Origin: Thermodesulfobacteriota bacterium
GTDB lineage: Bacteria > Desulfobacterota > Binatia > Bin18
Reading direction: 5' to 3'
DNA: 64,000 bases
NCBI GenBank assembly: GCA_964291405.2
Contig: OZ219926.1
Span: 2,784,001 to 2,848,000, forward strand
The translations under genes were made by a program, and so were the position numbers. Every line of letters starts with the position of its first letter. The stretch's first letter is position 1. Positions 3,097-64,000 of this stretch are shown here, piece after piece. Under the pieces are notes generated by a model. It worked only from the letters and a program-made list of their open reading frames with translations. It was not told the DNA's origin and ran no database searches.

Positions 3097-3147
3097 ATCT
3101 TTCCTCCTTTTTTACTCAGGTGAGACGAGTGCAGGGGCCACGCTGCG

Positions 3148-4020
3148 TTACTTCTTTGGCGCTAACACTTCAATGGCCCGCTCGTCCGGCACCATACCAC
3201 CCTTGGGGCTCAGCGGCATGATACACACGTGTGACGCTCCCGCCTCATAATAGGCCGCCACCCGCTCGCGAATTTTTGCTTCGTCTCCCCAGGCAATAAC
3301 CGCGTCCACGAGTCGGTCACTGCCGCCGTTTGCCATGTCGGCGTCAGTAAAACCGACTTCTTTGAAGCGTTGGACGTAGTGATCGATTTGGAGATAGGTC
3401 TGCATATAACTGCGGGCGGCGGCGCGGGCCGTATCCGCGTCCGACTCCAGCATCACACCCAGCTCGGCACACAGCCACGGTTCCGGCCCCAGTGCCCTGC
3501 GGGTCGCCGCAATTTGCTCAGGCACGGTGAAATAGGTATGCGTCCCCTGAGTCTGCGTTGCGGCCAGCGCAAGCATCTTGGGCATCATCCCGGCCAGCAC
3601 CACAGGCGGGTCGTTTTGTGGGGCTGGTGCGGCGTACGGTACAGCTTTCATCCTGGTCAGATACTCACGTGTGAAGCTGAGCGGCTTGCCATACGGAATG
3701 CCGCGCCGGGCGTTGCCCTGCGCATTACTCACGCCCAGGCCGAGCACAAAGCGGTCGCCGTAGAGCTCGGCGAGCGTCCGGGCGGCATTGGCAATCGCAA
3801 TCGGCTCATACGCATAGGTCACCACAATGCCGGTAGCGATGACCAGACGCTCGGTTTGGCTCAGCAAATACGAGGCAAACGAAAAACTTTCGCGGCCCAG
3901 GGTCTCGGGAAACCACAGGGCACTATAGCCGAGCTGTTCGACTTTGCGGGCGAGCCGGCCGGTCTGCTCGCCCGTAAGGCCATCCAGAAAGGTAAAAACA
4001 CCAGGAGGTCGGAGGTCCAT
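3148..4020 (-). CDS. LLM-class, probably F420-dependent oxidoreductase (MSMEG_4141-like)
   Basis: LGYSALWFPE, RFVLGLGVS, GTHTYF and GGSDRLVDAVIAWG motifs. Confidence 0.85.
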   Translation of the reverse strand: MDLRPPGVFTFLDGLTGEQTGRLARKVEQLGYSALWFPETLGRESFSFASYLLSQTERLVIATGIVVTYAYEPIAIANAARTLAELYGDRFVLGLGVSNAQGNARRGIPYGKPLSFTREYLTRMKAVPYAAPAPQNDPPVVLAGMMPKMLALAATQTQGTHTYFTVPEQIAATRRALGPEPWLCAELGVMLESDADTARAAARSYMQTYLQIDHYVQRFKEVGFTDADMANGGSDRLVDAVIAWGDEAKIRERVAAYYEAGASHVCIMPLSPKGGMVPDERAIEVLAPKK

Positions 4021-4036
4021 ACACTGCTCCCGTGGA

Positions 4037-5080
4037 CTAGCGAAAGGCTGGAATAACCTTGCTGGTAAACAGTTCCAAATGAGGCTGAATCCAGCTCGCC
4101 GGCAGGCCCGGCGGCAGCGTCCACGAATAATAATGCGTCAGCGGGGTCTCTAAGGCATAGTCGCGGATCATCTGAATACAGGAGTCCACATCTACCACCT
4201 GAAACAGACCCGATTCACGTAAAGTATCGGTATCCGGCACTTTTGGAAACAGAGGCATACCGGCCTTCTCCGACCACTCGGCATAGGCATTGACCTGATA
4301 GCGAACGTGTTCGGCGGCTTCGTTCCAGGTCTTGTCCGGGTCTTCTGACGGAATCAGCCAAAAATATCCACCCGCGAGGCGAATATCCGTTGTGGACTTC
4401 CCGACCTTTTCCAAGGCGGTCACATAGCGTTCATACGCCTCTTTCAACGGGCCGACGCCGATATAGCCGTCGCCATACTTTGCCGCTCGCCGGAGTGCCG
4501 GTGGGGTGAAGCCACCGACCCAAATCGGTGGCCGGGGTTGCTGAATCGGCTCCGGGGTGAGCTTGGCTTTGGTCACCGTGTAATATTTCCCCTCAAATGT
4601 CAGGGTTTCGCCCTCCCATAGGCGACGAATGATTTCGAGGCCCTCATTCGTACGGGCGCCACGCTCTTTGCTCGACACATCGAAGCTCTCAAACTCCTCG
4701 ACTTTATACCCAACGCCCACACCCAACTCGAACCGACCACCCGAAATCACGTCCACCGTGGCCGCGTCTTCAGCCATCCGGACCGGATTGTGGAAAGGCA
4801 GGAGTATCACGCTCGTCCCGATATGAATTTTCTTGGTCCGGGAGGCAATCGCGGCGGCAATCGGCATCAGCGCAGGAGAATAGCCATCCTCGATAAAATG
4901 GTGCTCGGACAGCCAGATATCGTCAAAGCCGTTCTCCTCTCCCCACACGATCTGGTCAATGATCTCGTTGTAGAGCTGGTCATAAGGACGCTTCCAGGCG
5001 GGTGGGTTGCGAAAGTCGTACCACATACCAAAGCGAATTTTCGGATTTCCGTTCTCACTCATCGGGCTGTCCTCCTTCAT
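4037..5080 (-). CDS. LLM-class flavin-dependent oxidoreductase
   Basis: WLSEHHFIEDGY and PVRMAEDAATVDVISGGRFELGVGVGY motifs. Confidence 0.88.
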   Translation of the reverse strand: MKEDSPMSENGNPKIRFGMWYDFRNPPAWKRPYDQLYNEIIDQIVWGEENGFDDIWLSEHHFIEDGYSPALMPIAAAIASRTKKIHIGTSVILLPFHNPVRMAEDAATVDVISGGRFELGVGVGYKVEEFESFDVSSKERGARTNEGLEIIRRLWEGETLTFEGKYYTVTKAKLTPEPIQQPRPPIWVGGFTPPALRRAAKYGDGYIGVGPLKEAYERYVTALEKVGKSTTDIRLAGGYFWLIPSEDPDKTWNEAAEHVRYQVNAYAEWSEKAGMPLFPKVPDTDTLRESGLFQVVDVDSCIQMIRDYALETPLTHYYSWTLPPGLPASWIQPHLELFTSKVIPAFR

Positions 5081-5287
5081 AACCGATTGCGTATCTTATG
5101 GTCTCAGTGTGAAAATGGAAAGCGGACGTTGCTACAATTGATTCGTCAGACGACCCTTCTTCGCTCTGGAGAATCCTGGGTCCTCCCGCCTAGTTGACGG
5201 GTCGCGGGGTTCTCTGTATAGCGAACGGGTTTCACACGAGAAGAGTATGGGAGAGAATAGAGTATCTCTCCTTGAGAAAGGTATTGC

Positions 5288-6715
5288 ATGACGGACCAGA
5301 TTGGCTCTGAAACAAATCCCCTCCGCGTCGCTATCTTCGGCTCGGGACCGGCTGGATTCTACGCGGTTGGCGAACTGCTCAAGCAAAAAGATATTGCTAC
5401 TCGGGTTGACCTGTTTGACCGCCTGCCGACTCCCTACGGATTGGTCCGGGGCGGCGTGGCACCGGATCATCAAAAAATTAAAGCGGTCATTCGGCAGTAC
5501 GAAAAATTTGCCAGTCGGCCCGGCTTTCGCTTTTTCGGAAACGTGACCTTTGGCGAAGATATCCGGCTGGCCGATACCCTGGCACACTACCATCAAGTCC
5601 TGTTTTCAACCGGCGCAGAATCCGACCGGCAGCTCGGCATTCCGGGTGAGGACTTGACCGGCAGCGACCCGGCGACGATCTTTGTCGGCTGGTATAACGG
5701 GCATCCTGATTACCGCGATCTCAACTATGATCTGAGCAATGTTGAACGTGTCGCCGTGATCGGAAACGGCAATGTGGCCATGGACGTTGCCCGTATTCTG
5801 GCCCGCTCTATTGAAGAACTTTCAAAAACGGATATCGCCGACTATGCGCTCGAAGCGCTCAAGAAAAGTGCGGTCAAGGAGATCTATCTGCTGGGCCGAC
5901 GGGGGCCGGCACAAGCGGCCTTCACCAACCCCGAGATTCGCGAACTGACCGAAATGCCGATCACCGATCTGGTCGTCGAGCCGAAAGACCTCGAACTTGA
6001 CGAGGCCAATGCCGAATTCCTGGCGCAGGCCACAGAGCCGGTGCATCAGCGCAATATGGATATCCTGACGGCCCAGATTCCCAAGGGCGAGGGAACGGCC
6101 CAAAGGAAAATTCGGGCGCGTTTTTTTGTCTCTCCGGTTGAACTCTACGGGACCGAGCGCGTCGAGGGCATGAAACTCGAGAAAAACCGTCTGGTGAAGG
6201 ATGACAGTGGGACGCTGCGTGCGCGCGGAACCGGAGAATACGAGGAGTTGCCGAATATTCAGATGGTCTTCCGCTCTATTGGCTATAAGGGCCATCCGCT
6301 GAAAGACGTTCCGTTTGACGAGCGCTCAGGGATTATTCCGAACCAGACCGGTCGGGTCATCGACCCGGAAACACAGGCGCCTCTTGAGCGCCTGTACGTG
6401 GCCGGCTGGATCAAGCGCGGTCCGTCCGGCGTGGTGGGTACGAATAAGCCGGATGCGATTGAAACCGTCGGACTCATGTTGGAAGACCTGCAACAGGGCA
6501 AGGTGCCCAATACCATCAACGCCAGCGACGAAGCAGTTCCGGCTCTGCTGGCCGAGAAGGGCGTCCGCTACGTCTCTTTTGCTGACTGGAAATATCTGGA
6601 TCAGATAGAAGTCGAGAACGGGAAAAAAGTGGGCAAGCCGCGTGAGAAGATGACGACCGTCGCGGAGATGCTGGCCGCGCTCGATACCCAGACTTTGCAA
6701 GCTGCTGCTAAATAA
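5288..6715 (+). CDS. fprA: Ferredoxin-NADP+ reductase (FprA/adrenodoxin reductase family)
   Basis: GSGPAGFY, PYGLVRGGVAPDH, VIGNGNVAMDVAR and GWIKRGPSGVVGTN motifs. Confidence 0.9.
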   Translation: MTDQIGSETNPLRVAIFGSGPAGFYAVGELLKQKDIATRVDLFDRLPTPYGLVRGGVAPDHQKIKAVIRQYEKFASRPGFRFFGNVTFGEDIRLADTLAHYHQVLFSTGAESDRQLGIPGEDLTGSDPATIFVGWYNGHPDYRDLNYDLSNVERVAVIGNGNVAMDVARILARSIEELSKTDIADYALEALKKSAVKEIYLLGRRGPAQAAFTNPEIRELTEMPITDLVVEPKDLELDEANAEFLAQATEPVHQRNMDILTAQIPKGEGTAQRKIRARFFVSPVELYGTERVEGMKLEKNRLVKDDSGTLRARGTGEYEELPNIQMVFRSIGYKGHPLKDVPFDERSGIIPNQTGRVIDPETQAPLERLYVAGWIKRGPSGVVGTNKPDAIETVGLMLEDLQQGKVPNTINASDEAVPALLAEKGVRYVSFADWKYLDQIEVENGKKVGKPREKMTTVAEMLAALDTQTLQAAAK

Positions 6716-6746
6716 TGGCAAACCGCCGTGGAAGTGAGTCAACGCT

Positions 6747-7724
6747 ATGAAAGCTATTCGGATACACGAGTTTGGTGAACCAGAGGTATTGCAGCTCGAA
6801 GAAGTCGCGGACCTGACCCCCGGGACGGGGCAAGTCGTGGTGCGCATGCACGCGGTCGGAGTCAATCCGGTTGAGACCTATATTCGGTCCGGTATCTACC
6901 CCAAGCCGCCGACGCCCTTCACGCCCGGGTCGGACGGGGCCGGCGTAATCGAGGCCGTGGGCGAGGGCGTGGACCGGGTTGCCGTGGGCGACCGGGTGTA
7001 TCTGGCCGGTTCTCTCAGCGGCACGTACGCCGAACAGGCCCTGTGCAAACAGGAGCAGGTACATCCGCTTGGCGAATCGGCATCGTTCGCCCAAGGGGCC
7101 GCCGTGTTTGTGCCCTATGGTACTGCCTATCAGGCGCTCTTTCACTGCGGCCATGCCTCACCCGGCGAAACGCTTTTCGTGCATGGGGCTAGCGGTGGAG
7201 TGGGCATAGCCGGGGTACAGCTCGGTCGGGCCGCTGGCATGACGGTCATTGGAACCGCGAGTACGGAGCGCGGGCGCCAACTCGTATCCGAACAGGGCGC
7301 GCAGCACGTTCTCGACCACAGTGCCGCCTCGTACCTGGAAGAAGTGCAGACCCTGACGGATGGACGGGGCGTTGATGTGATTTTGGAGATGCTGGCCAAC
7401 GTCAATCTCGCCAAAGACCTCGACCTCCTCGCCATGCATGGGCGCGTGGTTGTCATCGGCAATCGGGGCGAGAGGAATCAGGGCACGATCGAGATCAATC
7501 CGCGGGCGGCCATGATGCGGGATGCCTCCATCATCGGCATGACCTTACGCAACGCCACGCCGCAGGATCACGTCCGTATACACTCGGCCCTTGTGGCCGG
7601 TCTGGCCAACGGTACGCTCCGGCCCGTGATCGGACAGGAACTCCCCCTGGCCGAAGCCGCCCAAGCCCACCGCGCCGTAAGCGGAGCGGGCAAAGCCTAC
7701 GGCAAGGTGGTGCTGATACCGTAG
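6747..7724 (+). CDS. qor: NADPH:quinone oxidoreductase (zeta-crystallin/MDR family)
   Basis: GVNPVETYIRSG, PGSDGAG, HGASGGVG and GKVVL motifs. Confidence 0.88.
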   Translation: MKAIRIHEFGEPEVLQLEEVADLTPGTGQVVVRMHAVGVNPVETYIRSGIYPKPPTPFTPGSDGAGVIEAVGEGVDRVAVGDRVYLAGSLSGTYAEQALCKQEQVHPLGESASFAQGAAVFVPYGTAYQALFHCGHASPGETLFVHGASGGVGIAGVQLGRAAGMTVIGTASTERGRQLVSEQGAQHVLDHSAASYLEEVQTLTDGRGVDVILEMLANVNLAKDLDLLAMHGRVVVIGNRGERNQGTIEINPRAAMMRDASIIGMTLRNATPQDHVRIHSALVAGLANGTLRPVIGQELPLAEAAQAHRAVSGAGKAYGKVVLIP

Positions 7725-43127: not shown

Positions 43128-43853
43128 GCGCAGGCGGCCGGAGACAATCGCCTTGGTCGCCCGCTTTATGCCGTCCGAGTCATCAACGACCATCCACGGA
43201 CCCGAGTGAACAAAACTCTGTAGCGTTTCACCCCTGTGTATGAGCTGGGGATAGAGCTCGTGGGTTGTACTAAACGCGCGCCCCTCCGGCATATACTCAA
43301 AAATTCGTGGCTCCAACACCTGGCAGCCGGTAAACATGAACCGAGAAAGAGGTTCGTTGATCTCAATCTCGCTCGGCTCGCCTCGAATGCGCCGGACCGC
43401 GCCAGTCCGATCCGTTTCAATTAGGCCATACGTGGCCTCATTGGGATTCGATCTGAGCAGCAAGGTCCCAATGGCATGGGCCTGCTGGTGGGCGGCCAGG
43501 AAGGCGGTCAAATCGAAATCAAGGATCGTATCCGCATTCAAGACCAGAAACGGTTCACCGTCGAGAAACGGCTGGGCGTTCTTGATCCCGCCGCCAGTGT
43601 CCAGGATGGGGTCTTCCGGCGAATAGGTGATCCGCAGGCCGTAGGCACTTCCGTCGCCCAATGCGTCTCTGAGCAGATGCCCAAGATGGTGGAGGTTCAG
43701 CACGACCTCTTCGACGCCGTGGGATTTGACAAACAGGAGGGTGTATTCAATCAAGGGACGGCCGGCGACCGGCACCAGCGCTTTGGGAAGCGTATCCGTC
43801 AGCGGCCGCATCCGGGTCCCGAAGCCGGCCGCAAGAATCATGGCACGCATCAT
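43107..43853 (-). CDS. murU: Nucleotidyltransferase (MurU-like)
   Basis: AMILAAGFGTRMRPLTDTLPKAL and LDTGGGIKNA motifs; paired with an AmgK-like kinase. Confidence 0.8.
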   Translation of the reverse strand: MMRAMILAAGFGTRMRPLTDTLPKALVPVAGRPLIEYTLLFVKSHGVEEVVLNLHHLGHLLRDALGDGSAYGLRITYSPEDPILDTGGGIKNAQPFLDGEPFLVLNADTILDFDLTAFLAAHQQAHAIGTLLLRSNPNEATYGLIETDRTGAVRRIRGEPSEIEINEPLSRFMFTGCQVLEPRIFEYMPEGRAFSTTHELYPQLIHRGETLQSFVHSGPWMVVDDSDGIKRATKAIVSGRLRLSYLRP

Positions 43854-44931
43854 GAGCCGGAGAAGTGCTCTGGAAAATGCTCCGCCAGAATGTCTTGCAG
43901 GTACCGATACTGCGGCAGACGGCCCAACACCCGGCGGATCGTTGCCAGTGTCGGCGGAATATAGCGCGTATAGCCGCTCTTGCCTTTTTCCAGCTCCAGA
44001 TAATAGAAACGACCGACAACCTTACAGGCTTTTTGGAGCAGGCACAGATTATACTCGTCCCACACGTATTCCGGTGCCAGCGAGTCACCGCCAGTGTGGT
44101 GCCACGCCTCGTGGTAGTAATTGACCAGCGCCTCTTCCAACTCCGGGGAGACGACTTCCGGCGTATCCCGGTCATTGAGCAGCGTGGCGAGATCATAGGT
44201 GGCCGGGGCGAGCAGGGCATCCTGAAAATCGATCACCCGGATGTGCTCCTGCTGCACGAATAAATTCCAACTGTGGTAATCGCGGTGGTTGAGAAAAAAG
44301 GTGGCCTGGTCGAGACGGGTGGAGATATCCTCAAAGATGCCACTCAGGGCCTGTGGGTCTCTGTCGGAGAGAGGGACTGCTTGCCGCGCTTGTCCAGGCC
44401 CCACTCGACAAAGTGCTCGAATTCCCACAAGAAGAGGCGCTTATCAAAGCGCTGCTGAAAGGCAATGCACCGCTCGTTTTTCTGACGGGTGCCCTCGATC
44501 TGGATGAGCAGCAACTGGTCGATGGCACGCCGATACCACTGTTCCACCTCGGCTCGGGGCACGTCCTGGACGGCATCACGCAAGGGCAGGTCGCCAATGT
44601 CTTCCAGGAGGAGAAAACCATCCTGATAGCCATCCGCGTAGAGCTCTGGGATACTCACTCCTAGAGGCTCAAGAAAGGCGTGCACGTTGAGATAGGGCAG
44701 CTCCTTGAGGGGTTCGTCGAATACGGCGAGCTCGTCCGATGAGAGCGCGAGACCACTTCCGGCCAGAATCATGACAACCGCCGAGGCCGGGCTGTCACCG
44801 CTCAGAGACAGCCGAACATAACTCCGGCTTGAGGCGTCTCCAGCCAGTGGATCAATCCGCGTAATCTGAGTTTCTCGCCCCCACTTTTCAGCAACGGCAG
44901 CGTCAAGCGCCTGGCGTAGTGTCACATCCAT
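43850..44931 (-). CDS. amgK: AmgK-like anomeric sugar kinase (APH fold), frameshifted near 44355
   Basis: LAGDASSRSYVR and LLEDIGD in one frame; HRDYHSWNL, IDFQDA and YDLATLL in the next. Confidence 0.78.
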
Positions 44932-44941
44932 AGCTGACGAG

Positions 44942-44995
44942 AAAGAATGAACGTGTCCCGCTTTGATCGTGGTGGAAAGGACACGTTCATTCTTT
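44942..44995. repeat. 17-bp inverted-repeat element (variant arms)
   Basis: AAAGAATGAACGTGTCC-N20-GGACACGTTCATTCTTT; perfect pairing with compensatory changes. Confidence 0.85.
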
Positions 44996-45083
44996 GTAAC
45001 AATCGGGTGAGGACTTGTCAAAAATGAACGTCCAGCACCAGCTCTGCGTTGCAAATCGTCTACGCCTGTGATGGAAAAAAGCA

Positions 45084-52506: not shown

Positions 52507-54158
52507 ATGCCAATCAGATCACTCACACTGTTGTTTCCGGTAATCGTCGGCTGTCTCATCTCCTCTTGCTCCCTGACACCAAATCGAATGCCCCCGATTC
52601 TCGAAGCAGCGATGGAGTTACCCGACGAGTTTGCCGAAAGTGAAGTTGCCGGCTCATACGAGCCGCTGGAGTGGTGGAAGGCGTTCGCCGACCCGGTTCT
52701 CGACCAGGTCATCGAAGCGGTGCTGGCCTCGAACTTCGACCTCGCCGAGGCGGTCGCCCGGGTCGACCAGGCCAGGGCGCGGGAGCGTATCGTCAAAGCC
52801 CCGGCGTTTCCGCTGCTTCAGCCTTCGGTGGAGATCACCGATATGGAGACATCTACCAATGCGGGTATTGCCGCGTACCTGGACGAATTGGGGGTGGGTT
52901 CCGACGTATACCGCGATTTTGGCTTCGAGATTCCCGATCGGATCGGCCTGACGACCTACGACCTGGGTCTTGACATCTCCTACGAACTTGACTTCTGGGG
53001 CCGCAATCGCAACGACGCGCATGCCGCCGGTGCCGAGCGGCGGGCTTCGGAGTCGGACTACCTGACAGCCCGCATGGGGTGCTGGCCGAAACCGTGCGCA
53101 CCTACCTGGAGATCGTCGACCTGCGCCACCAACGGCGGCTGGCCGGCGAAGTCGTGGAAATCTTTCAGCAGCGGGAGTCCTTGGCCGAGTCTCGTTACGA
53201 CCGCGGGCTGACCGGTGCACGCGCCCTCTATACGGCGCGGCAGAACCTGAGCAACGCGCAAACCAGGGTGCCGCAAATCGAGGCGCTGTTGGCGGACGCG
53301 AAAGGCCGACTTTGGGTGCTCCTGGGGGGGTACCATGCGGACCTCGCGGGCATATTGCCCGATTCCCTGACGCCCTCCGCCGCGCTCGACCCGGTTCCGG
53401 CAGGCATTCCGGCCGACCTCCTGGCACAACGGCCTGACGTCAACGCGGCAAGGCAGCGGATGGAAGCAGCCCGCTACACCGTTGGCGCACGCCGCGCGGA
53501 TTTGCTGCCGAGCTTATCCCTGTACGGTTCCATCGGGCTGCAAAGTGCCGAGGCGGGCGAGTGGTTCGACCCGGATCAATGGTTCCGGAACCTGAGCTTC
53601 AACTTGCTTGGCCCCGCATTTCAAGGTTCACGGCTGCGCAGCAACGTTGATCTCGCCGAGGCCCGGTGGAATGAAGCTGCCGCCGCCTACGGGCGTTCCG
53701 TGGTCAGCGCGGTCAACGAAGTCGAGGCCGCCCTGGCGGGGCTGGAGGCCAACCGCCGCCGGCATTCCCTGCTGGCTTCCAGGACGCAAGAGGCTCAGGC
53801 CGAAACGGTGTTGCAGGAACGGCGTTATGCCTCCGGAGTAGGTAGCTATGAGGATTTCCTGACGGCGACGCACACCCTCCTGGGCGCGCAATCCGCGCTG
53901 GCAGCGGCGCAGCGTGACCTGGGGCACGCGCGTCTTGTCCTGCATCGCGCGCTGGGGGGCGCGTGGACTGCAAAGAGTAAACGTGTCCTCCAATCACACA
54001 AAAAAGCGGGACACGTTTACTCTTTCAACGAAGGGGAAGCCATCCAGCAGAGTAACCTAGCTCCTGACACCAAGGAGGGAACGTGTCCTTCCTCGACCGG
54101 CAGATGCGGGACACGGTCCCTCTTTCAACCGCGTCGGCTTGTGAGCGCCCCGGAGTAA
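52507..54158 (+). CDS. NodT/OprM-family outer membrane efflux lipoprotein, frameshifted at 53076-53079
   Basis: WWKAFADPVL, SYELDFWGR, PADLLAQRPDV and LHRALGGAW motifs. One extra G in the G4 run restores the frame. Confidence 0.85.
53972..54025. repeat. 17-bp inverted-repeat element (perfect)
   Basis: AAAGAGTAAACGTGTCC-N20-GGACACGTTTACTCTTT, read through by the OMF C-terminal tail. Confidence 0.88.
54073..54125. repeat. 17-bp inverted-repeat element (degenerate)
   Basis: AGGAGGGAACGTGTCC-N20-GGACACGGTCCCTCTTT. Confidence 0.75.
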
Positions 54159-54164
54159 ATCACC

Positions 54165-55379
54165 ATGTCCCGCATTTTCAGCTTTGTCATTGCCGGCGCC
54201 ATCCTCAGTGTTTCAGTGGCGTTGGCGGCTTTTCTCATTTCACTGGCACCCGAACCGACCCGCACTGAACCCCCGCCCCAGATCCCGTTCGCGCAGACGG
54301 AACTGGTTTCGGCCGGCACCGGTCCCATACCGGTCTACGGGTCCGGTACCGTGAGGCCGAGCGCTGAGATCGGTATCGCACCGCAGGTGGGGGGGAAAAT
54401 CGACTGGGTGGACCCGGGATTCCAGAGCGGGGGACGGGTAACGGCGGGCCAGACGCTCATCCGCATAGAAGAGGCGGACTTTCTGTACCGGGTGCGGGAA
54501 GCCGAGGCCAATCTCGCCGCCCGGCGGGTAGCCCTCCTTGAGGAGGAGGAAAAAGCCGAAATTGCCCGAGTCCAATACGAACTGTATATCGCCGGCCAGG
54601 GAGATGCGGATGCGACGTCAGCCGCGAATCCCCTCACGCTGAGAGAGCCTCAATTGAACGCGGCGCGTGCCGCAGTGAGCCGCGACGAGGCCCGGCTCGC
54701 TGAAGCCAATCTTGCCCTGTCCAGGACCCGGGTCACGGCACCGTTCGACGGCTTCGTACGCGAAGAATCCGTGGACGTGGGACAAGTCGTCGCCGTCGGC
54801 CAGACCGTCGGCCTGCTTTTCGCTGCGGAGGCCGTGGAGGTGGTCGTGCCCTTGTCCGATTCCGACGCGGCACTGATCGCGGGACTTTGGGATCTCAGGG
54901 CGGGTGACGGGGTGCGACGGGTGGCGGCCCGTGTGGTCGCCCAGTACGGGGACGGGAGCTACGCCTGGGAGGGGTATGTGGATCGGGGCGAGCTATCCCT
55001 GGACAAACAAACGCGAACGATAGACGTGATCGTGCGTGTACCCGAACCGTTTACAACTGGTGTCCGGACGGACGGCTCCGATGTTGTCGGTGAGCGCCCT
55101 CCCTTGCTGGTAGGCAAGTTCGTAGATGTGGAAATCCACGGCCATGAATTGGATGGATACTACCGGGTGCCGCGAGCGGCATTACAATCTGGCAACGAGG
55201 TTTGGATTGTGAATGATGGCGGCGTGGTGAGTATCGTTCCGGTACAGGTCCTACAACGGACCAACGACGAGGTATATGTGACCGGCACCCTTGAAAGCGG
55301 CCAGACCGTCATCACCGGTGGAATCCGGTTTGCCACAGAAGGCATGCGCGTCCTGACGGCAGCTGACCCGACACCATGA
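54165..55379 (+). CDS. RND periplasmic adaptor (MFP)
   Basis: APQVGGKI, LREPQL, TAPFDG and PLLVGKFV motifs. Confidence 0.9.
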   Translation: MSRIFSFVIAGAILSVSVALAAFLISLAPEPTRTEPPPQIPFAQTELVSAGTGPIPVYGSGTVRPSAEIGIAPQVGGKIDWVDPGFQSGGRVTAGQTLIRIEEADFLYRVREAEANLAARRVALLEEEEKAEIARVQYELYIAGQGDADATSAANPLTLREPQLNAARAAVSRDEARLAEANLALSRTRVTAPFDGFVREESVDVGQVVAVGQTVGLLFAAEAVEVVVPLSDSDAALIAGLWDLRAGDGVRRVAARVVAQYGDGSYAWEGYVDRGELSLDKQTRTIDVIVRVPEPFTTGVRTDGSDVVGERPPLLVGKFVDVEIHGHELDGYYRVPRAALQSGNEVWIVNDGGVVSIVPVQVLQRTNDEVYVTGTLESGQTVITGGIRFATEGMRVLTAADPTP

Positions 55380-58300
55380 GTCCTGACAACGGCCCTCACA
55401 CGGAACCATCCGGCCCGATCGCCTACATGGCTGGCAACAGTGTCGCTGCCAATCTGTTGATGTGGGCCATCATCGCCGCCGGGCTGGTGTCACTGACCGG
55501 TCTGGAGCGCGAAGCGTGGCCCACGGTCCCATTCTACCATGTCGAAGTTTCAATGCCCTATCCCGGCGCCACCCCGGAAGAGGTGGAGGAGTCGATCATC
55601 GCCAAGATCGAGGACCAGGTCAGCGGGTTGGATGATGTCAAGGCGGTCAAGTCCGTCGCGGCCCCAGGTATGGCATCCGTGCGTATTCAAATGGATTCCC
55701 GTACGGACATGGATCGAGCGTTGGACGATATCGAGTCTGCCGTCAATCGTATAGAGTCTTTCCCGGCTGGTGCCGACCGTCCCCAATTCAGGGAGATGAC
55801 CAACCGCCAGAGCATGATGCGGCTCATCGTGTATGGCGATGTGCCCGAGCGCTCGCTCAAGGAATTGGCGTACCAGATCGAGGACGAACTCACGACACTT
55901 CCCTCCGTGTCCCAGGTCGAGGTCAGTGGTGTTCGGAAATACGAGATCTCTATCGAGGTACCGCTGCATCGGCTGAGAGCCCTTGGACTGACACTCCCCG
56001 GCATCGCCACCACGATTCATCGCAGTTCCCTGGACCTTTCTGCCGGCAGTATCGATACCAGGGAATCCCAGGTGCGGGTCCGGACCCTCGGCCAGAACTA
56101 TGACCAACAGGATTTCGAAGAGATCGTCCTTCTCAGCGGCAGTGACGGCACGGTATTGCGCCTCGGCGACATCGCCGAGGTCCGCGACGGTTTTCAGGAA
56201 ACCGACCTGATTGTCCGGCACCAGAACCATCCCGCCGTATTCGTCGAAGTCTACCGGGCCGATGATGAGCACGTGATGGATGTCGCCACGACCGTCCGAG
56301 AGCACCTGACGAACGAGGTGGTCCCGGCTCTGCCGGACGGTGTGGGCATCACCATCTGGAATGACGAATCCCAGGCCTATGAGGAACGCGCCGCTCTTCT
56401 CCTCAAGAACGGAGTTCTGGGCCTGTTGCTGGTGTTGATCGCCCTGAGCTTGTTTCTCGAAATTCGGCTCGCCCTGTGGGTCGCCGCCGGCATCGCCATT
56501 TCGGGTATCGGCACCCTGGCCGCCATGCTGGTACTCGACTATGCAATCAACACCATCAGCCTGTTTTCGTTTGTCCTCGCCATCGGTATTGTCGTCGACG
56601 ACGCGATCGTCGTAGCCGAGCACATTCAAGTACGAACGCAAGCGGGGAACACCCGGAGTCGCGGCGGCGATCCGCGGCGTCACGTCGGATCAAAGTGCCG
56701 TTGACATTCGCGGTGCTCACTTCGGTGGTGGCGTTCGTCCCACTACTATTTATCCCTGGTGGCGTCGGTAAGGTATGGGAGGCACTGCCGGTCATCATGA
56801 TCGCCATGCTGCTGGTTTCTCTGGTCGAATCGCTGTTCGTGTTGCCCAACCACCTATCCCACCTTCCCGGCCCGGACTGGGTGCCGACCAGCGCCTTCGA
56901 TCGGTTCTTCGCACGGATTCAGAGTTGTGTAAACGAATTGCTGAACAAGTTCGTACAAGGCCCCTTGGGTCGGGCGCTACAGTTTGCGACGGACCAGCCT
57001 GCGGTGACGATGGCGGGGGCAGTGGGAATGCTCATATTAAGTATCTCTCTGTTACCGGCGGGTATCGTCCCTACCACATTGGCCGCTGACGTCGAGGGGG
57101 ATTTCGCAACGGTCACTCTGGACATGCCCGATGGGACGACCGCGCCGAGGACATACGAGGTGGCGAAGGAACTGGAGGCCGCGGGCCACCGGGTCATCGA
57201 ACGACTGTCGCGCGGCCGACCCGAGGATGCACCTCCGTTGCTGACCGGCGTCACGGTGACCGTCGGACAGGGGCCGAGACTTGAGGGTGGGGGACTGAAT
57301 CCCGAGCCCACCCTCAATCCGCGGGCCAATATCGCCACCATCGAATTCAAACTCCTGGGCGCACAGCAGAGACAGCTCTCCACCAGAGAGGTCGTGCAGG
57401 CATGGCGCGAGGAGGTGGGAGTGCTGCCCTACGTGCGCGGTATCACCTTCAGCGGCGAGCTCATCGACCTGGGCAATCCGGTCGAGGCCGTGCTGTCGCA
57501 TCCTGACCCGGAGCGCCTCGCCCAGATCGCAGACTCCGTGGTCGATGGTCTCCGTGGAGTGAGAGGCATCTACGACATCCGTTCGGATCACACCCCAGGC
57601 ATCCCGGAAATACAGCTCGAACTGCGGCCGGAAGCGCGGACCCTGGGTCTCACGCTTGAAGAGTTGGCCGGGCAGACGCGCGCCGCATTTTTTGGAGCAG
57701 AGGCCGTCCGGGTGCAACGCGGCCGGGAAGAGGTCCGGGTCTACGTGCGTCTGCCCGCCGATGAGCGGAATGCCATCACCGATGTCGAAGGATATCTGCT
57801 CCGTACGCCGAGCGGGGCCGAGGTCCCGGTTACCAGTGTGGCCGTGCTGAACCCAGGCGTATCGCCGCCGGCCGTTCGACGGAGGGATGGTCAGCGCGTC
57901 GTCACGGTCACGGCGGACGTGGACCCCACGGTGATTTCCGGCGACGAAGCCAACAGCATTCTGACCAATTCGATCCTCGCGGACTTGACCGCCGTGTACC
58001 CGGACCTGACATACACGTTTGGAGGTGAACAACAAGAGCAACTCGAGTCCGTAGGTGCGCTGTATCGCGGGTTTGCGATTGCCTTACTCATGATTTTCGT
58101 GCTGCTCGCCATCCCCCTACGCTCCTATACCAAACCGTTCATCATCATGGCCGTTCTCCCGTTCGGGTTCATCGGCGTGATCCTGGGTCACTGGGTCCTG
58201 GGAGTAGCCCTGAGCGCAGTATCCTTTATGGGTATCTTCGGCCTCAGCGGCGTGGCTGTGAACGATTCCCTCGTCATGATCGATTTCATCGATCAGAAAC

Positions 58301-58614
58301 TCAGAGAAGGGGTCCCGATGCGCACGGCAATCATAGAGGGTGCTAAAGGGCGCTTTCGTCCGATCATGCTCACTTCCGTGACGACTTTCCTGGGCTTCAC
58401 CCCTCTCATTCTGGAACGCTCCATTCAGGCCCAGTTCCTGATCCCCTTTGCCGCGTCGCTCGGTTTCGGCATTCTCTTCACCACGGCCATCCTTATGATG
58501 GTCGTTCCGGCGTTATACGCGATCCAATTCCGGCTGATTTCTTCGCGTGGTAATTCTGGTGTCCCCGACACCTCGGTACACGCCCGATCCGCGAGCGAGA
58601 GCCTGCACGCGTAA
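55376..58614 (+). CDS. RND efflux permease, with two +1 indels (about 56630 and 56682)
   Basis: GIVVDDAIVVAE, VNDSLVM and RFRPIMLTS motifs. An intermediate frame reads YERKRGTPGVAAAIRGV and links the two ORFs. Confidence 0.88.
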
Positions 58615-58759: not shown

Positions 58760-60754
58760 ATGAGGACTCTGAGCTTCGCTGAAGACTTTTGTTTGCTGAT
58801 GTTTGACGACGCCTCCGGAGGCCTCTGCCCGCTCCGGGGGCGAACGATGGACTTCGGTTTGGCGGCCGCCGTCCTGTTGGAGTTGGCTCAGCACAATCGT
58901 ATCGAGACCAAGCCCAACAGTCTCTCTGTGGTCGATGCATCGCCGATTGGCGATCCCGTGGCGGACCCGGTGCTGGCCCAGGTCGCGTCGAGCGGACGGT
59001 CCGGCTCTCCGGAATACTGGGTACAGCGCATAGGGCTTCAGTCGGGCTCGCAGATAGCCGAGGCCAGCTTGGATCGGCTCGTAGAGCGCGGAATCCTGGA
59101 GCGGATCACGGGTGGCCTCTTCTTCCTCACCTCTGAGGTGGCACGTTCGCGACGCTACCCCAGGGCAACAGGCCGCGGCGCGGACGAAGTCCGCGTCCGG
59201 GTGATGCGGACACTCTTCAGCGGCGAGGCTCCGGACCCTTGGGATGCTGATCTGATAGGGCTCGCCGAGGCCTGCGGTGTCTTCAGGCTTATCCTGAGCG
59301 CGGCCGAGTTCGACAACGTGAGAGGTCGAGTCGAGAAGATGCGGCCGCCTAACCCGCTCTGCCACGCCGCTCAGCAGGTAGCCGCTGACGATTTGGCCAC
59401 GCAAGAGCCTTCGCGCCGAGAATTCAAGCCGATACCGGAGGTGCCGGGACTGCCGATCCTCGGCAATGCCCTGGGCATGAGCGGCGACCTGCAGGCATAC
59501 CTCGACGGGCTGTACAAACAGTACGGGCCGATTTTCAGTCTTCGAGCGCCTGGCCTCCGGGTAGTAGTCATGGGAGGCAAGGAGGCGATAGCGTTCGCGA
59601 TGAGGTATTCGCAGACGCACCTGCGTAGCAACCGGTCGTTCGCCGTCTTCTGCGAGGCGATGGAGACCGACCGGTCGATCATCTCCATGGACGGTCACGA
59701 TCATATCAAACTCCGGCGCCTCGCCCACGCCGGCTACGCCAGGATGACGGTCACGGACAACTTGGCGACGATCATCGACGTCGCCCGTCGCGTCGTTGCG
59801 TCCTGGCCCGTCGCCCAACCCCTTTCGGTCTATCCGGCAATGCAGGAGATTGCGATTCCGCAACTCGGAACTGTTGCAACCGGGCTCGCGCCGACTGAAT
59901 TCGTCGACGATCTCAGGTACTGGTTCGACTCGCTCGTCATCGCCATGCGTCAGGATCGGCCGAAGTTCATGCGTGACTACCGGTTGCGAAAGGTGCGTCC
60001 CAGAATCAAGGAACTCTTTCGCCAAGCCGTGGAACTACACGATCCGCAGCGTCGCGAGGGGTGTCCCCGCGATCTGATCGATGAGTTCCTGGAGTTGCAC
60101 AGGCGCGATCCGCAGTTCCTCCCGGAGACCGATCTCATCTCCTCGGTGGTCGCCCCATACATCCAGGCCCTGGACCCCATCGCCGGCACCCTGGGGTTCG
60201 CTTTGCTTCGCTTGCTGGCAGAACCACGGTACGCCGAAATACTCCAAAACGAGGCGGATGAAGCGTTTGCCTCGGGGCTGGCCGATGCCGACGACATTCA
60301 CGGACTGGATATGACATACGCGTTCCTTGCCGAGGTCATGCGCTGCCGCACCATCACGCCGATCATCCTGCGCACGGCGTGTAACTCCTTCGAGTTCGAG
60401 GGTCACTGGGTACCCGCCGGTACGCCGCTGTGGCTGGCTCCGGGGGTGGTCCACAACGACCCGGACTACTACCCGAACCCCGACCGATTCGAACCCGAGC
60501 GGCACTTGCCGCCACGGCTCGAATCCCAGCAGAAGGGCGCTTTCGTTCCCTTTGGAATCGGTCCGCATTCCTGCCTCGGAGATTCATTTTCCAGAGATCA
60601 GATGGCGGTGACGCTGGCCACGCTTCTGCACTGTGCCGAATTCGGCCGCTATCCGGTTGGAGACAGTCGCGTGAGAATCACCTCATACCCGTCGCTCCGT
60701 CCGCACGGCAAGTGCCGCATTCAGATAAAGCGTCACCGGCTCGCCGCTCAGTAA
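58760..60754 (+). CDS. GPP34 (GOLPH3/Vps74-like) domain-cytochrome P450 fusion 1
   Basis: N-terminus LSFAEDFCLL..AAAVLLELA..GDPVADPVL..LDRLVERGIL (GPP34-like). C-terminus PGLPILGN, EVMR (ExxR), FEPER and FGIGPHSCLG (heme Cys). Confidence 0.85.
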   Translation: MRTLSFAEDFCLLMFDDASGGLCPLRGRTMDFGLAAAVLLELAQHNRIETKPNSLSVVDASPIGDPVADPVLAQVASSGRSGSPEYWVQRIGLQSGSQIAEASLDRLVERGILERITGGLFFLTSEVARSRRYPRATGRGADEVRVRVMRTLFSGEAPDPWDADLIGLAEACGVFRLILSAAEFDNVRGRVEKMRPPNPLCHAAQQVAADDLATQEPSRREFKPIPEVPGLPILGNALGMSGDLQAYLDGLYKQYGPIFSLRAPGLRVVVMGGKEAIAFAMRYSQTHLRSNRSFAVFCEAMETDRSIISMDGHDHIKLRRLAHAGYARMTVTDNLATIIDVARRVVASWPVAQPLSVYPAMQEIAIPQLGTVATGLAPTEFVDDLRYWFDSLVIAMRQDRPKFMRDYRLRKVRPRIKELFRQAVELHDPQRREGCPRDLIDEFLELHRRDPQFLPETDLISSVVAPYIQALDPIAGTLGFALLRLLAEPRYAEILQNEADEAFASGLADADDIHGLDMTYAFLAEVMRCRTITPIILRTACNSFEFEGHWVPAGTPLWLAPGVVHNDPDYYPNPDRFEPERHLPPRLESQQKGAFVPFGIGPHSCLGDSFSRDQMAVTLATLLHCAEFGRYPVGDSRVRITSYPSLRPHGKCRIQIKRHRLAAQ

Positions 60755-60957
60755 AGTCCCCATCGACGCGAGTTTCTCTTGCCCGGGAACGAGTGTCAAC
60801 GGTGGCAGGATTAGGAGTTGAACTACTCCGGCTTTCGGCCGAGCACAGAGTACATTGGCGTGAATATCCCCAACCGGTCGGATTCTGCAGACACTACCAA
60901 GATAAGACTTGTCCCTCCCTAAACCGGAGAGCTATAATACAGCAAGGGCGAAGACCT

Positions 60958-62982
60958 ATGACTGTTACTCAAGAGGGTGCGACAACCCAACCCCTAACTT
61001 TGACCCAAGAACTCATCCTGATGCTCCTCAACGAGGAGACCGGCTACTTCCACCAAGTGCCCGGCTGGGATCTGAACTGCGCCGTGATCGGTGCCGTGCT
61101 CGCGGAGCTTTCCCTCAGACGTCGCATTGACACGGATGAGGAATCCCTGTTCCTTGTGGACGGGACGGAAACGGGCAACCCCGTTCTGGACCCCATCCTG
61201 AAGGAAATTGCAGCTGAACCGGTTCAACGGAACACCCAGTACTGGATCGAACGGCTCGCTCCCCGTGCGGAGTCGATCATTGATGCGGTTCTGGATCGCT
61301 TGGTTGAGCTAAAGGTCCTGGAACACCACGAAGGCGGGTTCTATACGCTGGCTCGCGCTGCCTGGCAGACGGAAGTGTTCGACAGCTCCTCAGAAGGCAC
61401 GGCGATTCAATTCGTCAAGACGCGCATCAGCAATGCAATTTTCAACAATGATATCCCTGACCCGAGAGATATCATCATTATCTGTCTCATCAACACGTGC
61501 GACGTCTTTCGCTTCATGTTTCAACTTGATGACGAGGCAGAGGAGCGCATCGAGTTCATCTGCAAGATGGATTTGATCGGCCGGTCCATCGCTGCTGCGG
61601 TCTCCCACAACCTTGCCGGCCCGCTGCTTCGACATTCCGCCCTGACTAAGAAGATTCCGGCTGTCTCCCTGAGCAAGTTGCTGTTCAATCCCCATATTCG
61701 CAGCGGCAATATTCCCGCGCTCTTTGCGGATCTTACGCAAGAGTACGGCCCGGTATTTGAAATCCGTCCTCCGTTTGCCGAGCCCATGATTTTCCTGGCC
61801 GGGCCACGGACAAACCGCTGGGTACATCGGCACGGGCGGATGTACCTGAGGGCCAAGGACTATTTTGCCGACTTCGAGAAAGTCTACGGTGCGTCTGGCG
61901 TACTCCCTTCCCTGGATGGCGCCGATCATTTCCGGCTTCGCAAGGCGATGGGGCCGGCCTATTCACGCGGGAGACTGGGAGGTCAGTTGGACCAGGTCTA
62001 CCATTATGCTCGTAAATATATGGCGGATTGGACGGTTGGAGACTCCCTCTCTGCAACGCGCCTGTGCCGACGCATGATTAACGCGCAAATCTCACCTCTC
62101 CACCTCAGCGTTGACTCGCAAGATATCATCGACGATCTAGTCGTCTACAAGGAACGAGCGCTCAACACCCACATCCTAAAAGCCCTGCCCAAATTCATGC
62201 TGAAAACCCCAGGGATGAGCCGCCGGGCAAAAATTATCGACACCTTGCTGGAACGGGTCCAGGGGGTCCACACGCCGGCCCAGCGGTCCGGATGTCCGCG
62301 GGACCTTGCGGATGACTGGTTAAGCCTGCACGCGAGCGATCCGCAATTGATGCCGGAGTCGAATCTGCGTTTCGCTCTTTCAGTCGCGCTGGTTGCCAGC
62401 GTCTACCTTGGCGATGCGTTCAGCTTCGCTTTGTACGCCATGGCGTCACAACCGGCGCTCTACTCCAAAATCCAAAGTGAGGCCGATGCCCTGTTCGATA
62501 ACGGTGATCCGGAGGGCGAGGACTTCACCCCAGCCGCAATCGACGTCACGCACCGCTTCCTCATAGAGTGCCTACGCATGTATCCGATTGTCCCGATGTC
62601 TGTACGAACCGTGATGAATTCGTGCGTGGTCGAGGGCTACGAACTACCGGTGGGGTCACAGCTCTACATTGCCCAGACAGCCGCGCATTATATGGACGAC
62701 GTCTTCCCTGACCCCTTCTCTTTCGATATCGACCGCTATCTGCCTCCGCGTAATGAGCACCTCAGTTCCGGGTACGCACCCTACGGGCTGGGTACGCACA
62801 CCTGTCTGGGCTCCCGATGGATGGACCTGCAACTGGCCGTCAATGTGCTTATGGTTGCGCACTACTTTACGCTCAAGGTCCCCACGAACTACAAGTTCCG
62901 GTTCAGCCCGTTGCCGTCAATGAAACCGAGCAAGAAGCTGAAATTCCACATCACCGAACAGAGGCGCGACTTGCCCGTCTGA
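60958..62982 (+). CDS. GPP34 (GOLPH3/Vps74-like) domain-cytochrome P450 fusion 2
   Basis: LTLTQELILMLLNEETG..GAVLAELSL..TGNPVLDPIL..LDRLVELKVL, then ECLR, FDIDR and YGLGTHTCLG. Start re-called at ATG 60958. Confidence 0.85.
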   Translation: MTVTQEGATTQPLTLTQELILMLLNEETGYFHQVPGWDLNCAVIGAVLAELSLRRRIDTDEESLFLVDGTETGNPVLDPILKEIAAEPVQRNTQYWIERLAPRAESIIDAVLDRLVELKVLEHHEGGFYTLARAAWQTEVFDSSSEGTAIQFVKTRISNAIFNNDIPDPRDIIIICLINTCDVFRFMFQLDDEAEERIEFICKMDLIGRSIAAAVSHNLAGPLLRHSALTKKIPAVSLSKLLFNPHIRSGNIPALFADLTQEYGPVFEIRPPFAEPMIFLAGPRTNRWVHRHGRMYLRAKDYFADFEKVYGASGVLPSLDGADHFRLRKAMGPAYSRGRLGGQLDQVYHYARKYMADWTVGDSLSATRLCRRMINAQISPLHLSVDSQDIIDDLVVYKERALNTHILKALPKFMLKTPGMSRRAKIIDTLLERVQGVHTPAQRSGCPRDLADDWLSLHASDPQLMPESNLRFALSVALVASVYLGDAFSFALYAMASQPALYSKIQSEADALFDNGDPEGEDFTPAAIDVTHRFLIECLRMYPIVPMSVRTVMNSCVVEGYELPVGSQLYIAQTAAHYMDDVFPDPFSFDIDRYLPPRNEHLSSGYAPYGLGTHTCLGSRWMDLQLAVNVLMVAHYFTLKVPTNYKFRFSPLPSMKPSKKLKFHITEQRRDLPV

Positions 62983-63004: not shown

Positions 63005-64000
63005 ATGACCCTACCCGTTGTCCGATTCGCGGCGATTGAGGGTCTCGTGCTCGAGGCGGCGGCCATGCTGTTGGTGTTTGTCGGCGTTTTGTTTCTGGGT
63101 TCTATACTCCTGCCCGGCCGTCGGGTTGCAGGGCCGGATCTCGAGGGAAAATCACGCACCTACAAGCTCAACGGCCTCGCCTTGTTCCTGATTGTCGTGA
63201 TGGTGGCATGCCTCGCCCAAGTCTCCGGCTGGTTCTCACTTTCCGTGCTGCATACCCACTTTGCCGCTTTGTTCGTGGTGGCAAACGGATTCGCATTTGC
63301 TCTTTCCGGCTGGCTGTATTGCCGTGGAGCCTGGGCCGGAGAGGCATCACCAGGAGTCTGGCGAGGATTTTTCTTTGGCTCGGAGCTCAGTCCGACCTGG
63401 CTCGGGGTGGACTTGAAGCTTTTCAGCTACCGCCCTTCCCTCATCGCCCTGGCACTGTTCAACGCATCGTTTGCCGTCGTGCAGTACGAAACCTACGGCG
63501 GGCTGACCCTGGCCATGGCGCTCTATCAGATCTTCACCTTCTTGTACGTGCTCAACTACTTCCAGTTCGAATACGGGATGACCCACACCTGGGACATGGT
63601 CAGTGAGCGCTTCGGGTGGATGTTGATTTGGGGCGACTATGTGCTGGTGCCGTTCTTCTATAGCCTCGCGGGCTGGTGGCTGGTTCACGCAACGGAACCG
63701 CTGTCTCCCATGGCCGCCGGCGCGCTCGTCTTGTTGTTCGCCTTTGGCTTCTGGCTCTTTCGCGGCGCCAACGAGCAAAAGCACCGCTTCAAGCATGACC
63801 CTGCGGTCACGATTTGGGGACAACCCGCCCGGTCCCTGGACGGGCGCCTGCTGGTCTCCGGATTTTGGGGTATTGGACGACATCTCAACTATACCGGCGA
63901 GGTCTGCGTCTACCTCGCGTTCACCCTGACCACTGGACTCGCCTCCTGGGTGCCATACCTGTTACCCGCGTGGCTGGCGGGTCTGTTGTGGCATCGATCG
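63005..64000 (+). CDS. ERG24/ERG4/DHCR7-family sterol reductase (Delta14-reductase-like), runs off the window end
   Basis: Open frame from ATG 63005, absent from the ORF track: YKLNGL, FFGSELSP, DLKLF, TWDMVSERFGWMLIWGD, RGANEQKHRFK, LLVSGFWGIGRHLNYTGE and HR motifs. Confidence 0.9.
   Translation, partial: MTLPVVRFAAIEGLVLEAAAMLLVFVGVLFLGSILLPGRRVAGPDLEGKSRTYKLNGLALFLIVVMVACLAQVSGWFSLSVLHTHFAALFVVANGFAFALSGWLYCRGAWAGEASPGVWRGFFFGSELSPTWLGVDLKLFSYRPSLIALALFNASFAVVQYETYGGLTLAMALYQIFTFLYVLNYFQFEYGMTHTWDMVSERFGWMLIWGDYVLVPFFYSLAGWWLVHATEPLSPMAAGALVLLFAFGFWLFRGANEQKHRFKHDPAVTIWGQPARSLDGRLLVSGFWGIGRHLNYTGEVCVYLAFTLTTGLASWVPYLLPAWLAGLLWHRS

Follow-up and report, generated by a model that had tools for sequence, protein, structure and literature searches.

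Two adjacent genes, here termed gene A and gene B, were identified in a 64,000-nucleotide stretch of the genome of a Thermodesulfobacteriota bacterium of the class Binatia (GenBank assembly GCA_964291405.2, contig OZ219926.1, positions 2,784,001 to 2,848,000 of the forward strand; this whole stretch is referred to as the window). Each encodes a cytochrome P450 preceded in the same polypeptide by a GPP34 domain, the domain of GOLPH3 and Vps74, and the pair lies between a tripartite efflux pump and a sterol biosynthesis operon. From sequence and gene context we favor, with moderate confidence, the reading that A and B are soluble cytoplasmic enzymes of the published GPP34_L type that tailor the sterols of the adjoining cluster. 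The fusion is already in print; the window adds two members from two different clades, and the link with sterol and efflux genes is absent from the literature searched.

Gene A (58760..60754, forward strand) is a single open frame. Of its two possible starts, the ATG at 58760, which gives 664 amino acids, is likelier than the GTG at 58730 (674 amino acids), because the starts of relatives show the corresponding 'M-x-x-L-S/T-F-A-E-D', and two close relatives also measure 664 amino acids. Gene B (60958..62982, forward strand) starts with ATG and is a single open frame of 674 amino acids. Pfam searches, for which the curated GPP34 (PF05719) cut-off is 29.1 bits, identified GPP34 in residues 17-210 (118.2 bits) and the P450 family (PF00067) in residues 237-634 (164.9 bits) of protein A, and the same two domains in residues 15-215 (102 bits) and 247-646 (112.2 bits) of protein B. 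On the DNA, the GPP34 and P450 domains correspond to about 58778-59359 and 59438-60631 in gene A and to about 61000-61602 and 61696-62895 in gene B, and the two domains of A are separated by the proline-rich hinge IPEVPGLPILGN. Short-read contigs from two independent studies covered 58446/58461-61023 without gaps, one differing from the window at a single letter and the other at none; since these contigs match without indels, the reading frame of gene A is no assembly artefact. Over their full length (666 columns), A and B share 29% identity. The original prediction, made from the sequence of the window, had described two P450s with an extra N-terminal GPP34-like domain and an old split between them. 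Pfam, the profile search and the modelled fold confirmed the former, and the low identity and the separate clades of A and B in the tree bore out the latter. The span given in that prediction, 58760-61640, covers gene A but reaches only the N-terminal domain of gene B.

The fusion is not rare. It was named GPP34_L in sponge-symbiont bacteria (Microbiome 2025;13:4; PMC11706023), and the available text of that article reports that long GPP34 proteins were GPP34 plus P450 in 656/663 cases and that these fusions accounted for 47.5% of all GPP34 proteins in a sponge-symbiont data set spanning 20 phyla. A and B share with GPP34_L, as described there, the order of GPP34 first and P450 second in one polypeptide, the length class of about 660-680 amino acids and a spread over many phyla, and they may share its habitat signal. 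Using a 9-sequence alignment, we found that at least 567 stretches encode relatives in contigs representing one genome per species. From these stretches 80 loci were kept, including flanks of at most 10 kb, and their open reading frames (ORFs) were clustered; all locus comparisons below refer to this set. The 80 loci were all from metagenome-assembled genomes (MAGs), assigned to Chloroflexota, Acidobacteriota, Spirochaetota, Latescibacterota, Gemmatimonadota, Pseudomonadota and Binatia. Among the database matches to gene A at E <= 1e-10 (n = 99), 92 had both domains, 2 were P450-only relatives, and 5 were distant P450s of at most 26% identity, the first of which was named sterol 14-demethylase. 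A run labelled as a sponge metagenome contained pieces 90-97% identical to the window, and the closest genome records were uncultured Binatia MAGs. The original prediction had also considered that the architecture might already be functionally characterized; it has been described, but its function was experimentally tested in none of the literature found. In the literature on GPP34, GOLPH3, Binatota and sponge-symbiont sterols (supplementary tables aside), a link between GPP34 and bacterial sterol genes was not found. The word 'sterol' occurs 0 times in PMC11706023, and a preprint (10.64898/2025.12.19.695621) makes no mention of P450, GPP34, gene cluster, efflux or Rieske.

The genes downstream of gene B form a sterol cluster. 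The stop codon of gene B is separated by 22 bases from the start of an ERG4/ERG24-type sterol reductase gene on the same strand (63005..64000 and past the window end, 363 amino acids in total), which matched Pfam ERG4_ERG24 with 181.5 bits for the part in the window and 235.9 bits for the whole. It is followed by CYP51, a frame for squalene epoxidase and oxidosqualene cyclase (OSC), a multi-pass membrane protein and a sterol methyltransferase, and then by SdmA-like (410 bits) and SdmB-like (309 bits) genes, an amine-oxidase-type flavoprotein, a KshA_C Rieske oxygenase and a second CYP51-like P450. The first CYP51 scored 350 bits to M. capsulatus CYP51, and Sterol_MT_C and KshA_C domains were present. 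Epoxidase and cyclase occupy one 1273-codon frame (positions 3092-6913 of locus L005, G000:C3:2849091-2852912), in which the cyclase scored 725 bits to TIGR03463. In each of the 9 other cyclase-bearing genomes, the cyclase is likewise part of a long frame (1158-1476 codons), which suggests that this lineage of sterol operons has the two enzymes fused. According to the available text of PMC9531527, ERG24-CYP51-LSS 'clusters of steroid genes' occur in 115/537 (21%) Ircinia symbiont genomes, Binatia included. The three genes after gene B have the same order and about the same size (5.9 kb), and methyltransferase and SdmA/SdmB-like genes come next, as in the SMT/sdmAB clusters of sponge symbionts described in the available text of PMC10070321. 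'GPP34' occurs 0 times in the former text and 'P450' 0 times in the latter, and the upstream pump and the fusions appear in neither.

Some features of this region were recorded in their own right. A sigma-70-like promoter match, TTGTCC-18-TATAAT, lies at 60909..60938 of the forward strand, 20 bases upstream of gene B; it is a pattern match only, agreeing with the consensus at 10/12 positions, and the scan gave 4 sites in the region against 1.4 expected. The second CYP51-like P450 (L005 14564-15985) scored 552 bits to PDB 9wat_A ('Cytochrome P450', 440 amino acids) versus 265 bits to M. capsulatus CYP51. The multi-pass membrane protein between cyclase and methyltransferase (L005 ~6904-7644) had no Pfam match and was 86-87% conserved in two Binatia relatives; a protein atlas offered the EBP sterol isomerase family as a candidate (score 0.91, the family being on 20% of cluster members).

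Upstream of gene A, on the same strand, lie genes for an OEP outer-membrane efflux protein (52507..54158; Pfam OEP on both ORFs, 52507-53211 and 53079-54158), an HlyD-type membrane-fusion protein (54165..55379; Pfam HlyD_3 and HlyD_D23) and an RND (AcrB-family) permease (55376..58614; ORFs 55376-56704 and 56476-58614, matching positions 9-413 and 421-1019 of the 1021 of Pfam ACR_tran). Compared with the window, short-read contigs contained one base more behind 53075 in the OEP gene and one fewer each at about 56630 and about 56682 in the RND gene. Because these contigs restore single OEP and RND frames, it is probable that the pump is intact and that indel errors are present in the deposited sequence; on the same observation, the idea that the split pump genes mark a decaying cluster was rejected. 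The RND permease scored far under the NCBIfam multidrug cut-offs. RND homologues 58-78% identical to it lay beside GPP34-P450 genes in 20-22/80 loci, and HlyD in 15-16/80. In M. capsulatus, the RND-type transporter BstABC is reportedly encoded near sterol genes, and outward sterol movement is said to have been proposed for it; the pump in the window is a tripartite OEP-HlyD-AcrB-type set. About 14 kb upstream, an APH/ecdysteroid-kinase-like gene (43850-45054, reverse strand) appears split into two overlapping ORFs; the Pfam family to which it belongs supplies the conjugating enzymes most often found next to GPP34-P450 genes at other loci.

The N-terminal domain was compared with known structures by profile and by fold. 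A profile of 28 N-domains matched, among PDB sequences, GOLPH3 (3kn1, E 1.1e-11; also 9qpq) and Vps74 (E 2.8e-9; 2zii, 4tu3 and 2zih), the rest being noise; used as a single-sequence query against PDB sequences, the N-domain gave no match. The AlphaFold2 (AF2) model of the gene A N-domain had a mean per-residue confidence (pLDDT) of 88.8 and a predicted TM score (pTM) of 0.87. Foldseek of this model against PDB returned 8 matches at E <= 0.001, all of them GOLPH3/Vps74 chains (TM 0.59-0.70, E 1.6e-7 to 1.2e-4), and a ninth match at E 0.12. Strands 123-126 and 130-133 of the model, which is not a solved structure, align with the beta-hairpin region of GOLPH3. As modelled, the N-domain of A is a GOLPH3/Vps74 fold with a helical core and a projecting beta hairpin. 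Because profile and Foldseek searches point to GOLPH3/Vps74 alone, the reservation attached to the original prediction, that the domain might not match this fold, fell away. Homology of the domain to GOLPH3/Vps74 (PDB 3kn1, 9qpq, 2zih) is supported at the profile level (E 1e-11) and at the fold level (TM 0.6-0.7), and the core helices and the beta-hairpin region are present. The bacterial domain differs in being about 40 residues shorter and acidic, in the replacement of the pocket for phosphatidylinositol 4-phosphate (PI4P), and in being fused to an enzyme, whereas GOLPH3/Vps74 are free adaptors for glycosyltransferase tails and the COPI coat.

The PI4P pocket bears on a proposal already published for this family. 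The PI4P pocket of GOLPH3 is formed by W81, R90, R171 and R174, as given in the available text of PMC2806290. In the profile alignment these columns hold R, A, S and A in gene A and P, I, E and I in gene B; only the R174 column is basic, in clade III alone (the clades are described below). In clade II, which includes gene B, a conserved Trp lies two residues past the W81 column, so that the W81 alignment could shift; the three basic positions were not recovered. The N-domains are net acidic, with 23 K+R versus 28 D+E in A and 18 K+R versus 36 D+E in B. As the four GOLPH3 pocket residues are replaced and the domains are acidic, it is unlikely, judging by sequence, that the GPP34 domain of A or B reads PI4P-type lipids, and this form of the membrane or lipid targeting suggested in the original prediction was not supported. 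A signal peptide or transmembrane stretch was looked for in A and B and neither was found: in Kyte-Doolittle plots with 19-residue windows, none reached 1.6 in gene A, and the few of gene B sit in a core GPP34 helix and in the I-helix.

The available text of PMC11706023 describes GPP34_L as exclusive to sponge symbionts and proposes, without experiment, PI4P-dependent evasion of phagocytosis, in which the proteins would be released into the host, bind host PI4P and disturb phagosome maturation. The homology of the domain to the PI4P effector GOLPH3, the report of the family only from sponge symbionts and the relatives of the window in a sponge-metagenome run are in keeping with such a role. 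Still, we consider it very improbable for A and B: W81, R90, R171 and R174 are not kept in either protein, the R174 position alone being kept in one clade, both lack a signal peptide or transmembrane segment and have acidic N-domains, and a haem enzyme dependent on a bacterial redox chain would make an unlikely secreted effector. In addition, metabolic enzymes and exporters, rather than secretion systems, make up the conserved surroundings of the fusions. Whereas GPP34_L in that text has no link to a sterol gene cluster and is proposed to bind host PI4P, A and B do not retain the PI4P residues and are flanked by an efflux pump on one side and a sterol operon on the other.

The P450 half of gene A contains the Cys-ligand loop FGIGPHSCLG, EVMR at the EXXR motif and PDRF at the PERF motif, and that of gene B contains YGLGTHTCLG, ECLR and PFSF at the same places. 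The best full-domain relative of the gene A P450 among solved sequences was M. capsulatus CYP51 (85 bits), and the nearest P450s outside the fusion family were of CYP51 type (26% identity, E 4e-17). That A or B serves as the CYP51 of the cluster was rejected: the match of A to the M. capsulatus enzyme reached only 85 bits, that of the neighbouring true CYP51 350 bits, and in the tree the fusions branch apart from CYP51 and its paralogue. The AF2 model of full-length A had pLDDT 87.6 and pTM 0.84, with a weak linker at 242-251, and the high pTM suggests that the GPP34 and P450 domains have a fixed mutual arrangement. The matches listed by Foldseek for this model were all generic P450s (CYP184A1, CYP51, BM3, CYP46A1 and CYP17A1), uninformative as to the substrate and the N-domain.

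Pfam found GPP34 as the sole second domain in A and B, and no redox domain in either. In this they differ from fusions to a redox partner, of the BM3 or CYP51-ferredoxin type. M. capsulatus CYP51-ferredoxin (PDB 6mcw, 7jj1, 7snm) is similar in being a bacterial sterol-pathway P450 with an extra fused domain; its extra domain, however, is a C-terminal redox partner, whereas that of A and B is an N-terminal non-redox adaptor fold, and the CYP51 of the window is a separate gene. Directly after GPP34, the family has the consensus 'IPxVPGLPxxGN', with I235, P236, G240, L241, P242 and G245 invariant in 9 sequences. In microsomal P450s, the membrane anchor sits before a proline-rich hinge, which we take this segment to resemble.

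Taken together, the favored sterol-tailoring reading would run as follows. The ERG24-CYP51-epoxidase/cyclase operon, with the methyltransferase, SdmA/SdmB-like, flavoprotein and KshA-like genes, would produce a sterol in the inner membrane, and the P450 domain of A, and perhaps that of B, would oxidize it further. The GPP34 domain, placed where a microsomal anchor would stand before the proline-rich hinge, would dock the enzyme to the cytoplasmic membrane face or to a membrane protein such as the exporter or a sterol enzyme, by a contact other than the PI4P pocket, and the upstream OEP-HlyD-RND pump would move the product out of the cell. The substrate, the export step and co-transcription are what we infer here, as is the function of GPP34 as a tether or adaptor, for which exporter neighbours, sterol genes, the position of the hinge and the high two-domain pTM argue. 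A lipid substrate, as the original prediction had assumed, is plausible because the genes are lodged in a sterol biosynthesis cluster.

We examined whether the fusions keep similar company elsewhere. Within 10 kb of the fusions in the 80 loci, the neighbours included RND (20), MFS (19), ecdysteroid-kinase-like (EcKL; 18), HlyD (15), sulfotransferase (13), KshA-like Rieske (12, or 20 by tblastn), OEP (12), flavoprotein (9), ferredoxin-reductase-like (5) and sterol methyltransferase (4) genes. When grouped, an exporter was found at 41 loci, EcKL or sulfotransferase at 30, a KshA-like or flavoprotein gene at 18, and a sterol methyltransferase or cyclase-type gene at 7; at least one of exporter, conjugating enzyme, KshA/flavoprotein and sterol gene was present at 59/80 loci and none at 21/80. 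Recurring gene strings were GP450-EcKL-MFS, GP450-sulfotransferase, and KshA-GP450 with OEP-HlyD-RND. Among the 7 loci with sterol genes, the cyclase was at least 59% identical to that of the window in 4 and 27% identical in L070. Locus L022 has the order RND-A-x-B-flavoprotein-KshA, which is the order of the window minus the sterol genes between B and the flavoprotein. In two related genomes, G034 and G037, a GPP34-P450 gene lies inside the sterol cluster, between KshA-like and flavoprotein genes. G037 also has a 90% identical orthologue of B before ERG24 (3804803-3806827), upstream of the cyclase (3810736-3812742), its second GPP34-P450 gene being on the far side of the cluster. Among 6 genomes of the window's own family, OSC was found only in G178, next to GPP34-P450 genes. 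Because a phylum-wide sample of 80 genomes contained no OSC-type cyclase, only SHC-like matches of 23-35%, the cyclase is lineage-specific.

Several observations weigh against the sterol-tailoring reading. OSC of at least 69% identity was present in 9/48 genomes with GPP34-P450 genes, near the 21% reported for Ircinia symbionts (PMC9531527, available text), and because this rate is no higher than the published one, there is no tie between the fusion family at large and de novo sterol synthesis. On the supporting side, the cyclase was found, by clade of the leading locus, in 8/10 genomes of the RND/KshA subclade, in 1 unplaced genome (L087) and in 0/37 others, so that only one clade, not the whole fusion family, is tied to de novo sterol synthesis. 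No OSC-type cyclase was found in the genomes of L018 and L022, which have orthologues of A as well as of B, and two relatives of the same genus have GPP34-P450 genes but likewise lack the cyclase. Across 9 genomes from the family or lineage of the window, gene A had no orthologue (best match 40%), and gene B had one only in G037. In short-read data gene A was found on one contig at a depth of about 34, and the pump and gene B on many related contigs at depths of 80-920. On account of the missing orthologues and the single contig, gene A looks like a recent import and not a fixed part of the pathway.

The enzymes themselves also raise doubts about it. The canonical acid-alcohol pair of the I-helix (A/G-G-x-D/E-T) is complete in neither A nor B. 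Gene A has ALDPIAG, with the acid present and Thr replaced by Pro (some close orthologues have ALD(P/T)), and the subclade of gene B has ASV-YLGD ('VASV-YLGD' in gene B), in which both the acid and the alcohol are missing. The canonical AGLDT is seen in clade III relatives, and AGH-YLGS in the main part of clade II. The incomplete pair lowers the claim that A and above all B are ordinary monooxygenases and leaves the P450 fold assignment unaffected; gene B may have an atypical chemistry or a non-standard partner role. In addition, the P450 domain is only 17-22% identical to solved P450s, its structural matches being generic, the sterol cluster contains no redox partner gene, and the acidic N-domains are ill-suited to simple binding of anionic membranes.

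The same gene counts bear on another reading, in which the fusions serve general lipophile handling: hydrophobic compounds of the host or the environment, be they host sterols or no sterols at all, would be hydroxylated, phosphorylated or sulfated, and exported, much like a three-phase route of detoxification or conditioning, and the adjacency to sterol genes in this genome would be secondary. We rate this main rival as rather unlikely, although it suits the carrier genomes lacking the cyclase better than sterol tailoring does. It accords with the finding that the commonest neighbours in the 80 loci are exporters (RND and MFS) and conjugating enzymes (EcKL and sulfotransferase), often co-directional, that 39/48 carrier genomes lack an OSC-type cyclase, and that the closest relatives of gene A are in such genomes. 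Two database proteins in which a fusion is joined to a transporter or a conjugating enzyme, P0076 and P0032, fit it as well. It is at odds with the placement of fusions inside the sterol cluster in the window, G034, G037 and G178, with the cyclase in most RND/KshA-subclade genomes, and with the KshA-like, sterol methyltransferase and EcKL neighbours, which are steroid-linked families by name, not by assay. Sterol tailoring and lipophile handling merge if the substrate there is a host sterol. P0076 (953 amino acids) consists of GPP34, an MFS transporter and P450, and is a real fusion with a usual neighbour or a merged gene call; P0032 (649 amino acids) consists of sulfotransferase, GPP34 and P450, and is likewise a real fusion or a merged gene call.

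As a broader and tentative proposal, GPP34-P450s may be the oxidases by which sponge symbionts decorate their own or host sterols before phosphorylation, sulfation and export, with GPP34 as a prokaryotic counterpart of the Golgi adaptor for enzyme retention, placing a lipid-modifying enzyme at a membrane or its exporter independently of PI4P. If this is true, part of the unusual oxidized and conjugated sterol chemistry attributed to sponges would be bacterial. The fusion and the sterol operon have been reported apart as enriched in sponge symbionts; they adjoin here, and a speculative role in host manipulation would be replaced by an enzymatic role that can be assayed. The question bears on who makes sponge sterols, and hence on the reading of sterane biomarkers, and on the function of bacterial GOLPH3 relatives. 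With both diverged fusions, the pump and the whole sterol cluster contiguous, the window offers a ready construct design for heterologous expression.

To place A and B within the family, a tree was built from 75 rows, comprising 70 fusion ORFs from 64 loci together with the window genes, the P450 part of a third copy in the genome and two CYP51-type outgroups. Three well-supported clades were obtained. Gene A belongs to clade I (9 rows), where its nearest relatives (73-76%) are records of Bryobacterales, Ca. Multivorans and Dehalococcoidia. Gene B belongs to a 6-row subclade of clade II, where its nearest relatives (about 71%) are records of Gemmatimonadota, Chloroflexota and Acidobacteriota; the N-domain of B is 57-72% conserved across phyla. 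Because A and B are only 29% identical and fall into different old clades, they are not local duplicates, and an origin by local tandem duplication was discarded, each gene having orthologues of 70-76% in other phyla. Clade III also contains P450-only members of about 470-510 amino acids from Vicinamibacterales (L026-L028, L031, L037 and others), in which GPP34 is lost or absent; the P450-only gene of L037 comes directly after an EcKL-like gene.

The company that A and B keep also bears on the suggestion in the original prediction that they form a heterodimer. In this scenario A and B would pair obligatorily through their GPP34 domains, in the manner of the hairpin oligomers of Vps74/GOLPH3, with B as a non-standard or regulatory subunit. 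A-type and B-type genes adjoin in three genomes (the window, L018 and L022), 5/6 genes of the B subclade have a second GPP34-P450 gene within 10 kb, the model contains a hairpin region that aligns to that of GOLPH3, and B lacks the acid-alcohol pair yet has an N-domain conserved across phyla. Against these points, G037 has an orthologue of B and none of A, L095 has a B-type gene alone, and only 5/80 loci hold two fusions. A complex prediction for the GPP34 domains of A and B, run without controls, scored 0.00 against a mark of 0.32 and is neutral on this point. We judge an obligatory heterodimer, for which gene adjacency is the evidence, quite improbable.

Other GPP34 genes were found in the same genome and class. 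A third GPP34-P450 locus (L004, G000:C3:3015993-3019160) has its GPP34 remnant (1189-1692), its intact P450 (1738-3156) and sulfotransferase-like pieces all in different frames; relatives hold intact versions of 672-676 codons, and either pseudogenization or assembly indels would account for the broken frames. Its P450 falls in clade III. A stand-alone GPP34 gene encoding 220 amino acids was found at G000:C3:1240794-1241393 (reverse strand, 161 bits), with copies of near-identical length in relatives of the same family and in another family of the class. Within the window's class, fusions with frames of at least 590 codons were present in 4/6 sampled genomes of its own family versus 0/54 from other families.

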